DNA from: an uncultured delta proteobacterium
GTDB taxonomy: Bacteria > Desulfobacterota > Binatia > HRBIN30 > BPIQ01
DNA length: 64,000 nt
Direction of reading: 5' to 3'
NCBI GenBank assembly: GCA_963761335.1
Contig: CAVXGR010000018.1
Coordinates: forward strand, 1,088,001 to 1,152,000
How positions within the stretch are numbered: the first letter of the stretch is position 1; the number at the start of each line of letters is the position of its first letter. Below the pieces are notes generated by a model. The model made no database searches. It was not told the origin of the DNA and saw only the letters and a program-made list of their open reading frames with translations. The position numbers were made by a program, and so were the translations under genes. Positions 61,578 to 64,000 of this stretch are shown here, in pieces.

Positions 61578-62254
61578 GGGTCGCGTCTCCTGGATTCCAG
61601 CTCTTGGGCAAAGGCTCTGCTAGCATCCCGGTCTCGACGGCGAAAGGCGGAAGGGGACAGGCAGGTGGGGACAGGCTTTTTCCAACGAATCGAGCCCCGG
61701 TGCCGCCGCCGAAGGTTGTTGCGTTGTTGGTTGTTGGTTGTTGGTAAGAAGGGGGGAACCGACCTAGCAACCAACAACCCGCCCGCAGCCAACGGGCATT
61801 CCGCTGGGCAAAGCCAGGATGCACTGCTTCGAAAATCTGTTGGGTGTGCGCTTCGGGGGCGCGTTCCCTCTCCCGCATTACTTGGCGGGGGTTACCATGT
61901 ACGGCATGGTGATTGCCGCGGGGAGCTCGAACGCGAGGGGGGTTGGTAGCCTCCGCTCCCGCGGGCCTCAAGGACCATATTCCCCTCGTCGCCTCCCTGC
62001 GGTCGGCGCCGATTCCTCGCGGAACAAAATCGTCCTTGACCCCCGCTCCGCTGCGGCTGGTGGGGGCTCCTATGGCGGAAAGGGAGACCTTTCCGCCTGC
62101 GGACAAGGCGGAACGCTCCACCCGGAGCAGAGGGGGCAGAGGCAACGCGTGCCTTATCGCGCCGAAAAGGGGAGCCTCCTTCTCAGAAACGCGAGACGCC
62201 ACAGTGGCGTTCAGCAACGCTGCATCGCAGGCAGCAAAACGGAAGGAGACTCCC

Positions 62255-63346
62255 ATGCGAAGATTAGTTCTAAAGCCCGTAGGCAAGCAACACCTCCCAA
62301 CGCGCCCCGCCGCCGGCGAGAGCGTGATCATCGGTGTCGATCTGTCGCGCTCGAAATGGGTCTACACCTGTCGCTGGAGTGGGCTGGAGCAGCGGCGGCT
62401 GAGCACCCCCGGCGAGCTCTGCCACCTCCAAGCTCTGGCAGGCGAGTACCGGGGCTACGGCTGCCACGTGCACATCGTCTACGAGGCCTGCGGCTTCGGC
62501 TACGAGATCGCCTGGTGGGCGCAGGCGCAGGGACTCGATGTGCTGGTGGTGCCGCCGAGCACCGTGGAGAAGGCACCCGGCAGCCACGTGAAGACCGATG
62601 GACACGACGCCAGCGGCCTGGCACTGCGCTACGAGAGAGGAATGCTCAAAGGCATCCACATTCCGGTCCGGAACTGTCACCAGCTGCGCCAGCTGTCGCG
62701 CACTTACGATGCCGCTCTGCGCGATCGCAAGAGACAGCAAGCCAGAGTGCGCATGCTGCTCCAAGAGCACGGATACATGCCGCCTGCGCCGAGCGCCGGC
62801 TGGTCGACGCTCGGGCAGTGGCTGGCGGCCCAGGAGTTCGCCGCCGCCCTCAAGGCCTGTGTGGCGCAGCTGCTCATCCTGCGCCAGAGCGCCGCGATGA
62901 GCACCAAGATGCTCAAGACAGAGCTGCTTGGGGTCGCTGCCCTGCCGCAGTACAAGCCACTGGTTCAGGCGCTCACCGCGCAGTCCGGTGTGGGCAAATT
63001 CACCGCGATTCGCTTCGTGCTCGAGGTGGGCGACATCCATCGCTTTGCCACCGCCGACTCCATCGTCAACTTCTACGGCCTCGCGCCCCAGGAGCACAGC
63101 ACCGGCGACACCGTGCGACGGGGTCGGATTCGCAAGTGCGGTCCCGCCTTCATTCGCTCGTGGATCATCCAGTGCGCCTGGGTTGCTCGCGGTACCCGTG
63201 GCGATGCCGAGCTGCGGGAGTTCTACCAGAGACTGTGGCCGCGGGTCGGCAAGAAGAAGGCCATCGTGGCGGTGGCGCGCAAGCTGGCACTGCGGCTGCG
63301 AGCTCGCTGGCTCGCCTACGAGCGGAGCCAGGCGCAAGCGGCCTAG
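62255..63346 (+). CDS. IS110 family transposase/recombinase
   Basis: GVD, YEA, KTDGHDA (DEDD); SGVG..EVGDIHRF..YGLAPQEHSTG..KKKAIVAVARKL; AAGGAG RBS. Confidence 0.95.
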   Translation: MRRLVLKPVGKQHLPTRPAAGESVIIGVDLSRSKWVYTCRWSGLEQRRLSTPGELCHLQALAGEYRGYGCHVHIVYEACGFGYEIAWWAQAQGLDVLVVPPSTVEKAPGSHVKTDGHDASGLALRYERGMLKGIHIPVRNCHQLRQLSRTYDAALRDRKRQQARVRMLLQEHGYMPPAPSAGWSTLGQWLAAQEFAAALKACVAQLLILRQSAAMSTKMLKTELLGVAALPQYKPLVQALTAQSGVGKFTAIRFVLEVGDIHRFATADSIVNFYGLAPQEHSTGDTVRRGRIRKCGPAFIRSWIIQCAWVARGTRGDAELREFYQRLWPRVGKKKAIVAVARKLALRLRARWLAYERSQAQAA

Positions 63347-63389
63347 ACTCTTGTTCATCGACCACCAACCCGCTCCGCATCCGGCAGGC

Positions 63390-63545
63390 TGTCCCCTCGA
63401 GCGACTGCGTCTGGCCCTCTGGTTGCGCCGCAAGGTGCCAACGTTCGGGAGTTTTGCAGCGCTCGGCAATATCCAACGGGACGAATGATAACTTGGTGAC
63501 CGTCCCCACACGAGGACGCGCACGAATAGAAGACTCGCCACCGAC
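63390..63545 (+). ncRNA. Putative bridge/seek RNA in the IS 3' non-coding end
   Basis: Two stem/internal-loop/hairpin modules whose loop strands match the target (CTGGCCCTCT, CGGGAG) and the donor junction (ATGATAACT, ATAGAAG). Boundaries approximate. Confidence 0.7.
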
Positions 63546-63585
63546 GGATCGGAGCCCAGAACAGAGCGAGGGCGTACATGACCAC

Positions 63586-63591
63586 TTGACA
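63586..63591 (+). promoter_or_regulatory. -35 box of the IS circle-junction promoter (its -10 partner TACCAT is at 61893-61898)
   Basis: Circularisation gives TTGACA-N17-TACCAT. Confidence 0.7.
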
Positions 63592-63629
63592 AGAGCCGTC
63601 ATAGAAGAGGGTCAGGGTTCAGTGAGACA

Positions 63630-64000
63630 GGAACCCCTCACCTTGATCCTCTCCCCGCAGAAAGATGCGGGGAGAGGAGACCCGCCCCCGCGGCGCGGAA
63701 GTATCATCGCAAGCGTCTGATCGGTGAATCAGGACGCCGTCCATTTTCATCGTCTACTGGCGAGCCGCAAGGCTCATGAGGCACTGCTTCGAAAATCTGT
63801 TGGGTGAAGGTCTGGCGGAGCGCACCGGGGCTTGGCGTGGAGGCTTATCGCCCCGGAGGGGCGCAGGCATGTAGCCCCGGGTGTTAACCCGGGGACCGCG
63901 TTCGGCCCAGATCAGCGCCCCGCAGGGGCGCAGGCGTAGAGGCCGCGTGGATCACGTCGATGAGCTTCCCACGCACCCAGCGGTGATCATCGGCGTACAG
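63630..64000. repeat. Composite repeat cluster (inverted copies of 10151-10333 and 23895-24146)
   Basis: Visual alignment of reverse complements; truncated by the window end. Confidence 0.8.

Follow-up and report, generated by a model that had tools for sequence, protein, structure and literature searches.

A likely bispecific guide RNA encoded 3' of the transposase gene in an IS110-family, IS1111-like insertion sequence with a REP-like target

What does the 259-nucleotide (nt) non-coding region downstream of a transposase gene at 63347-63605 do? It lies near the right edge of the window, by which we mean the whole 64,000-nt stretch that was analysed (contig CAVXGR010000018.1, positions 1,088,001 to 1,152,000) from an uncultured delta proteobacterium, and coordinates below are those of the window. 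The original prediction, made from the letters alone, had read the region as a bridge-RNA candidate whose two loops are programmed against the genome's repetitive extragenic palindromic (REP) repeat and against the ends of the element. We found that 63347-63605 is very likely (about 90%) the 3' non-coding region encoding the bispecific guide RNA (bridge RNA or seekRNA) of an IS110-family, IS1111-like insertion sequence (IS).

Guide RNAs of this kind have been described in related elements. In the bridge RNA of IS621, one loop binds the target and another the donor, and around a CT core each of them pairs with both strands of the DNA (PMC11208160). An IS1111-type seekRNA from the downstream non-coding region was reported to co-purify with the transposase, and in it the complement of the top strand lies 5' of the complement of the bottom strand (PMC11187229). 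In the window, all of the predicted strings are present at the predicted coordinates. In loop 1, GAGCGACTGC (63399-63408) pairs with GCAGCGCTC (63456-63464) and encloses CTGGCCCTCT (63411-63420), a GCAA-capped hairpin (63422-63442) and CGGGAG (63446-63451). In loop 2, ATGATAACT (63485-63493) and ATAGAAG (63526-63532) flank CGTCC (63501-63505) and GGACG (63514-63518).

To define the element, we searched its own genome (6.26 Mb, 29 contigs) at the DNA level and found five copies of the IS with 97-100% identity, whose flanks are parts of a repeat that occurs at dozens of further places in the genome. The alignment of these copies, together with the empty sites, placed the whole IS at 61890-63607 on the + strand, including both junction dinucleotides (GG 61890-61891, AG 63606-63607). 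Its length is 1718 base pairs (bp) with both dinucleotides and 1716 bp counting one (about 1.7 kb). At the left junction, the five copies have a variable flank ending in GCGGG, followed by GGTTACCATG; at the right junction, GTCATAGA is followed by AGAGGGTCAGGG. The window copy reads GGCGGG-GG-TTACCATG (61884-61899) on the left and CATAGA-AG-AGGGTCAGGG (63600-63617) on the right. The fifth copy (on contig C27) is truncated by the contig end, and the right flank is visible in the four full copies. The transposase is intact and 100% identical at the protein level in all five, the 259-nt region is identical letter for letter in all five, and two copies are identical across all 1718 bp. The intact transposases and identical non-coding regions suggest that the IS was recently active.

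The flanks of the window copy are the two halves of its target. The left half (61866-61889, +) consists of the 5' arm of a hairpin, CCCTCTCCCGC (61866-61876), the loop ATTACTTG, and GCGGG (61885-61889), which starts the 3' arm; it is the part matched by CGGGAG. The right half (63606-63617, +) contains the rest of the 3' arm, AGAGGG, and then TCAGGG. Where the flanking repeat is uninterrupted, its sequence is CCCTCTCCCGC-ATTACTTG-GCGGGAGAGGGTCAGGGTGAGGG, which places the IS within the 3' arm of a REP-like hairpin, with GCGGG to its left and AGAGGG to its right. Around the insertion point, the target is GCGGGAGAGGG(T/C)CAGGG. Empty target sites elsewhere in the genome read GCGGGAGAGGGTCAGGG at the insertion point, and Logan contigs matching up to 61889 continue with AGAGGGTCAGGG. 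We identified 45 unoccupied perfect 14-nt sites, 41 of them the T variant CGGGAGAGGGTCAG and four the C variant CGGGAGAGGGCCAG. Thus, the predicted target is indeed a genome-wide REP-like hairpin repeat.

Both strands of loop 1 match this target. Target guide 1 (CUGGCCCUCU, with the core CU at its end; 63411-63420, +) has AGAGGG(T/C)CAG, the + strand of the right flank, as its partner. Its DNA form CTGGCCCTCT matches the right flank of the window copy at 9/10 positions and the GCC variant at 10/10, being the exact complement of this rarer variant and forming one rG:dT wobble on the common GTC variant. Target guide 2 (CGGGAG, with the core AG at its end; 63446-63451, +) is complementary to the - strand across the left flank and core (GCGGGAG in the empty site). 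The guide that complements the + (transposase-sense) strand thus precedes the guide that complements the - strand.

That one guide covers both REP variants, as had been proposed, is plausible. The exact complementarity to GCC sites and the apparent trace of an insertion at one of them speak for it indirectly; GTC sites require the wobble, and the four full copies whose right flank can be seen are all located at GTC (T-variant) sites. Because T-variant and C-variant sites occur at a ratio of 41:4, these four insertions say nothing on preference. The trace is at locus L175 (296-337; G000:C15:419595-419636), where a hairpin arm and GCG are followed by TCATAGAAG, the last 9 nt of the IS, and then by AGGGCCAGGG. 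The locus also lacks two or three bases of the flank (GG), and there is CG microhomology at the deletion ends. Judging by the sequence, an IS copy seems to have been lost here from a C-variant (GCC) site and to have left a footprint, so both target variants appear to have been used. We also considered the contig-end copy on C27 as an allele of this footprint locus on C15, and rejected it since only 73 nt are shared.

The strongest evidence comes from homologues, which were collected from species-representative genomes, taxonomic neighbours of the window and metagenome contigs. Aligned 3' regions from 33 of them share a scaffold and have hypervariable patches at exactly the proposed guide positions. 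For target guide 1, the 20 homologues with a right flank had a mean of 6.6/8 non-core matches to their own flank and 3.84 to non-own flanks, and none of 20,000 permutations was as good (19 distinct guides); one mis-parsed guide (L098, 3/8) was retained in these counts. For target guide 2, the 22 homologues with a left flank had a mean of 4.05/7 matches to their own flank and 2.35 to others (0/20,000 permutations as good, 18 distinct guides). The closest relative with both ends (L089), whose transposase is 79% identical, keeps CGGGAG and has TCAATCCTCT in place of CTGGCCCTCT; its right flank matches its own guide TCAATCCTCT at 10/10 positions. On sequence grounds, this difference between the two elements is a natural retargeting event. 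The expected guide-target covariation across homologues was therefore found: the loop strings change with the element's own flanks and, as described below, with its right end.

The stems were expected to covary as well. The structure set comprised 33 distinct homologous 3' regions whose transposases are about 45-88% identical, aligned by MAFFT without reference to structure (alignment A2). RNAalifold returned three helices with compensatory changes in 11 of 26 pairs. Helix 1 (63397-63408/63456-63466) has 11 pairs, four of them changed on both sides, and is 95.0% paired; helix 2 (the hairpin 63422-63442) has five pairs, three changed on both sides, and is 93.3% paired; helix 3 (63493-63505/63514-63526) has ten pairs, four changed on both sides, and is 98.2% paired. 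Overall, 95.9% of the cells in A2 were paired, compared to 27-50% when partners were slid by 1-3 columns, and the covariation score was 0.323 compared to 0.06-0.13 for slid partners. The observed values were reached in none of 500 shuffles. G-U pairs were frequent on the + strand, for example U-G in 20/33 sequences at columns 12/85. These would read A-C on the opposite strand, which indicates that the structure belongs to the transposase-sense transcript.

These helices correspond to a target-binding loop module (63397-63466, +), with outer stem 63397-63408/63456-63466 and inner GCAA-capped hairpin 63422-63442, and to a donor-binding loop hairpin (63493-63505 with 63514-63526, +) that contains CGTCC/GGACG. 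The minimum-free-energy fold of the single sequence contains the stems of the original prediction. It also contains a long-range helix between GCUCCGCAUCCG (63372-63383) and CGGAUCGGAGC (63545-63555) on the + strand, which probably closes the whole RNA. Over 32 homologues, the mean duplex energy of an element's own 5' and 3' flanks was -31.8 kcal/mol, with -24.5 for non-own and -23.7 for shuffled flanks; when the MAFFT alignment was lengthened by 35 and 30 nt, RNAalifold failed to return this outer helix. From the fold and the duplex energies, we predict a bridge/seek RNA of about 185 nt with two internal loops at approximately 63372-63555 (+). The predicted RNA lies beyond the stop codon of the transposase gene at 63346.

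To determine how far this scaffold extends, a covariance model of the RNA was run on metagenome loci. Among the 56 loci (L089-L144) with transposase segments 45-88% identical, 47 had a match 3' of the transposase; among 24 loci with 28-33% identity, none had. This suggests that the RNA scaffold is clade-specific. A cmscan of 61700-64000 against Rfam 15 (expectation value, E, up to 1) returned nothing within 63347-63599, and a chance-level SNORA71 match (63600-63672, - strand, E 0.93) overlaps 63600-63605. A further weak covariance-model match (29.6 bits) is located in the same genome at L174 1501-1601 (G000:C3:22337-22437); it covers the donor-loop half only, without the target-loop module, and is probably a relic of a related element.

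The donor loop was compared with the ends of the IS. The right end (63573-63605, +) contains two inverted-repeat copies, CGTACATG (63573-63580) and GCCGTCAT (63595-63602), a -35-like TTGACA (63586-63591) and an AGA extension (63603-63605). The right-donor guide (AUAGAAG; 63526-63532, +) is the same as the last 7 nt of this right end plus core (63601-63607). In 20/20 homologues, its five non-core nt are identical to the right end of that same element, with none of 20,000 permutations as good, and the guides are of five types: ATAGA, ATAAC, ATAGC, ATGGC and ATAGG.

The left end (61890-61905, +) starts with GGTTACC, a 7-nt terminal extension with the IS-borne GG, followed by the subterminal inverted repeat ATGTACGGC, and includes a -10-like hexamer TACCAT (61893-61898). 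The proposed left donor site is its bottom strand ATGGTAACC. Of the four guide assignments, the least secure is that of the left-donor guide (AUGAUAACU; 63485-63493, +), whose proposed partner is the + strand of the left end, (G/A)GTTACCAT; all that it has in common with this end is TAAYT and a few further bases. The string that had been predicted is present, but the match is not the 8/9 that had been claimed: because the left junction carries GG, the guide matches the integrated left end at 7/9, with one A:C mismatch and one U:G wobble, and reaches 8/9 only if the circle junction carries AG. Most homologues keep TAAYT in this guide, with CAACT in one subgroup, and GTTACCATG of the left end is invariant across the homologues whose left end was located.

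We then examined the protein that would use this RNA. The transposase gene (62255-63346, +) encodes 363 amino acids and is preceded immediately 5' of its ATG by the Shine-Dalgarno sequence GGAAGGAGA. The product matches the NCBIfam model NF033542, 'IS110 family RNA-guided transposase', with 191 bits (cut-off 140, residues 25-349), and the Pfam domains PF01548 (E 1.7e-10) and PF02371 (E 1.4e-20). Its motif GLAPQEHSTG fits GL-P----(S/T)G. In the homologue alignment A1, residues D29, E77, D115, D118, G275, L276, P278, S282 and G284 are invariant, and we take the acidic ones, from their position and not from a structure, to be the DEDD residues of an IS110-family RNA-guided recombinase. The nearest solved structure is that of the IS621 transposase (8wt6), with marginal similarity (E 9.7e-5) in the C-terminal domain only. 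A tblastn search of 72,556 plasmids gave 1019 records, none with at least 60% identity; the matches listed were 21.6-36.7% identical, and the long full-length IS110-family ones among them at most about 31%. One listed plasmid gene, annotated as IS1111A/IS1328/IS1533 family, had 24.3% identity over 67% of the query and is the one named hint of a relation to IS1111. Judged by these sequence models, the element is an IS110-family member, and together with the two-loop structure kept in the 33 homologues this upholds the claim of a bispecific IS110/IS1111 guide RNA.

The layout, as far as sequence reveals it, is IS1111-like. The RNA is encoded 3' of the transposase gene and has its target matches in the order typical of IS1111-type elements, there is no target duplication, and the terminal extensions are 7 and 3 nt in one reading of the ends. 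In this reading, ATGTACGGC (61897-61905) and GCCGTCAT (63595-63602) form the inverted repeats, matching at 8/9 with one indel; in addition, there is a perfect 8-bp repeat, CATGTACG/CGTACATG, 25 nt inside the right end. Less IS1111-like are the short and imperfect inverted repeats (those of IS1111 are 7-17 bp and usually 11-13 bp) and the left non-coding end (363 nt), which is longer than the right one (259 nt). Much of the left end is a long 5' untranslated part (61906-62254, +). The distance from the left end to the ATG is 363 nt in the window IS and 358 nt in L089, compared to 110-318 nt in 11 other homologues. An extra segment of about 240 nt within 61906-62254 is conserved with L089, and Rfam gave no match in 61906-62254 (E up to 1).

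Only loop 1 might guide, as in a short target-specifying seekRNA, while the transposase would read the ends through the subterminal inverted repeats and the similarity of loop 2 to the ends would be a scaffold or processing signal. This would account for the bad match of the left-donor guide and its lack of covariation. A 70-100-nt form of the ISEc11 RNA with target matches only was reported to be sufficient for transposition, and end recognition in IS1111-type elements was suggested to differ (PMC11187229). However, identity between the right-donor guide and the element's own right end in 20/20 homologues, through five types, is hard to explain without pairing, and helix 3, the hairpin between the donor strings, covaries. 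Moreover, the inverted repeats of this clade are short and imperfect, and their pairing score across 18 homologues was 3.67 for own ends, barely above 2.93 for non-own ends. We therefore consider it unlikely that loop 1 acts without loop 2.

End-like internal repeats occur in some transposons, and an RNA product is deduced here from sequence; the region might thus act as DNA, offering internal copies of the ends and target for transposase binding or synapsis, or it might be a conserved 3' untranslated region or terminator with incidental matches. Such roles appear very improbable, because the three helices have compensatory changes, G-U pairs are allowed only on the transposase-sense strand, and pairing in the stems is maintained as the loops follow the target. 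We found no terminator-like site within 63347-63605, and the protein family has been shown experimentally to use such RNAs (PMC11208160, PMC11187229). Chance similarity in a GC-rich non-coding stretch was examined with 100,000 mononucleotide shuffles of the region, its last 9 nt excluded. Single matches are indeed not rare: target guide 1 was matched in 808 shuffles (0.8%), CGGGAG occurred in 10,551 (10.6%), a left-end match with at most two mismatches in 24,309 (24.3%) and the right-end match in 780 (0.8%). All four matches together occurred in none of the 100,000, and in independent homologues these four positions vary with the flanks and ends, which leaves coincidence hardly credible and the bispecific guide RNA as the preferred interpretation.

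Several observations weigh against the bispecific guide RNA. The fold of the single sequence is no more stable than those of shuffled sequences (z = -0.64; 48/200 shuffles fold at least as well). Target guide 2 fits its flank moderately (4.05/7), with a recurrent mismatch fourth from its 3' end. The left-donor guide is a poor fit, with A opposite C in the window and CAACT opposite a TAACT end in the subgroup, and covariation cannot probe it because the left end is nearly invariant. In 3/20 homologues, and in L032 by eye, the right junction has GG and not AG; of these right junctions (L032, L077, L093, L094), three fit the target guide only with one core base missing, a 1-nt shift that was judged by eye. 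The homologues are related to each other, and the permutation and shuffle counts overstate their independence; the conclusion on guide-flank covariation is robust despite this kinship, given the many distinct guide-target pairs. Finally, we infer transcription of the region, binding of the RNA by the transposase and recombination from the complementarities, the covariation and the family membership, which are seen directly in the sequences.

The junction dinucleotides bear on how strands are transferred. All five copies, like L089, have GG at the left junction, and all five have AG at the right one. AG is present at every one of the 45 empty 16-nt target sites and GG at none, and the cores of the four guides all read CU/AG; there is thus no target-site duplication. 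This pattern indicates that the left dinucleotide is carried by the IS and the right one by the target. We also considered whether the left GG was derived from variant targets, which was rejected because 0/45 empty sites have GG. In the convention of PMC11187229, the apparent duplicate is assigned to the left end of the IS, and the left GG agrees with this. Two-strand exchange over a 2-bp core would copy in the AG of the target, and the GG/AG heterology should then decay. Its persistence could be a trace, left in natural sequences, of an IS1111-type element that moves by one-strand transfer (copy-out followed by top-strand insertion), an explanation that we regard as possible but doubtful. If it is true, the left-donor guide would tolerate a U:G wobble in the core and target guide 2 an A:C mismatch in the core. 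One-strand transfer has been proposed for IS110-group elements (10.1101/2025.10.25.684509 and 10.64898/2026.08.31.748434).

No sigma-70-like promoter was found inside the integrated element in a scan of 61800-63800. When the right and left ends are abutted, TTGACA (63586-63591) and TACCAT (61893-61898) are separated by 17 nt, and TTGAC at a 17-nt spacing is present in 21/24 homologues whose right end was located without using TTGAC. The joint of right and left ends was not found in Logan contigs of four DNA runs, in which only empty-site-like continuations from the repeated flanks were seen. A search for sequencing runs listed seven, none of them recorded as RNA.

These features suggest the following course of events. 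The IS would be excised as a circle, whose joined right and left ends would form the TTGACA-17-TACCAT promoter. This junction promoter may drive the transposase mRNA, so that circle formation would switch it on, and the guide RNA would be folded or processed from the 3' part of this mRNA and be bound by the transposase. The strands of loop 1 would then pair with opposite DNA strands around the AG/CT in the 3' arm of the hairpin, GCGGG-AG-AGGG[T/C]CAG, and the strands of loop 2 with the joined IS ends, CATAGA-AG/GG-TTACCAT. The recombinase would exchange strands at the shared dinucleotide, and the IS would be inserted in one orientation without target duplication.

The closest described counterparts are ISEc11, ISPa11 and ISKpn4 (Siddiquee et al. 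2024, PMC11187229). As reported there, they share with the window IS a DEDD transposase with GL-P----(S/T)G, a guide RNA 3' of the transposase gene with the top-strand complement first, and insertion without target duplication, with a left extension that carries a seemingly duplicated base pair. Their extensions of 7 nt on the left and 3 nt on the right are matched by one reading of the window ends. For ISEc11, the only recognisable promoter is described at the circle junction, as is predicted for the window IS, and ISPa11 also targets REP. The window transposase is only distantly related to any named element, at most about 31% identical among the plasmid matches listed and 24% to the IS1111A/IS1328/IS1533-annotated gene, and the RNA scaffold was found only in its own clade. 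For 93.0% of the IS1111 elements in ISfinder, a right-end bridge RNA had been predicted (Durrant et al. 2024, PMC11208160). Thus, the window RNA is expected in kind.

The window RNA resembles the IS621 bridge RNA in having a target and a donor loop, in each of which the two strands pair with opposite DNA strands, a CT/AG core in all four guides and natural REP targets (PMC11208160). A sigma-70 promoter across the joined ends is also common to both, predicted in the case of the window IS. In contrast, the IS621 RNA lies 5' of the recombinase in the left end, whereas the window RNA lies 3' of the transposase, and the window target is read in the opposite orientation relative to the direction of the transposase (PMC11208160; structures 8wt6-8wt9). 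The IS110-family elements ISPpu10 and ISPpu9 of Pseudomonas putida, like the window IS, insert into many copies of a repeated intergenic palindrome (10.64898/2026.03.19.712850, PMC12288879). For ISPpu10, a target stem-loop beside the base-paired site is described as an extra specificity determinant, and the insertion point in the window is also within the 3' arm of a hairpin. These two elements differ from the window IS in host lineage and RNA scaffold.

Most IS target sites are supplied by a composite repeat of about 290 bp, which starts with CTGCTTCGAAAATCTGTTGGGTG and has two hairpins (61820-61889 and 63608-63810 in the window; also L008, L019 and L027). It is dispersed and also forms tandem arrays of two or three units. 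The copy in the window is without about 45 bp of the unit directly right of the insertion point. With five IS insertions, the composite repeat is interrupted at five places in the genome. A second repeated unit often follows the first, and within it is an Rfam match to the Acido-Lenti-1 RNA (63849-63894, - strand, 37.7 bits with a gathering score of 37, E 2e-6). The genome also has a fragment of a second, related IS110-family transposase (L088; G000:C4:120378-120872, - strand), with a 225-amino-acid open frame that is 52% identical over residues 3-169.

Taken together, the locus is a genuine but ordinary further example of its kind, and the understanding of the mechanism is unchanged by it. 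By sequence logic, RNA-guided insertion as reported in 2024 for IS621, ISEc11 and ISPa11 extends to a soil lineage that is distant, GC-rich and uncultured. Some 50 compact RNAs of about 150-185 nt form the clade, and their naturally rewritten target loops make them a set of scaffolds on which programmability could be tested. Such a retargeted clade is useful as comparative data on the rules of programmability, the tolerance of wobble pairs and the heterology of the core.

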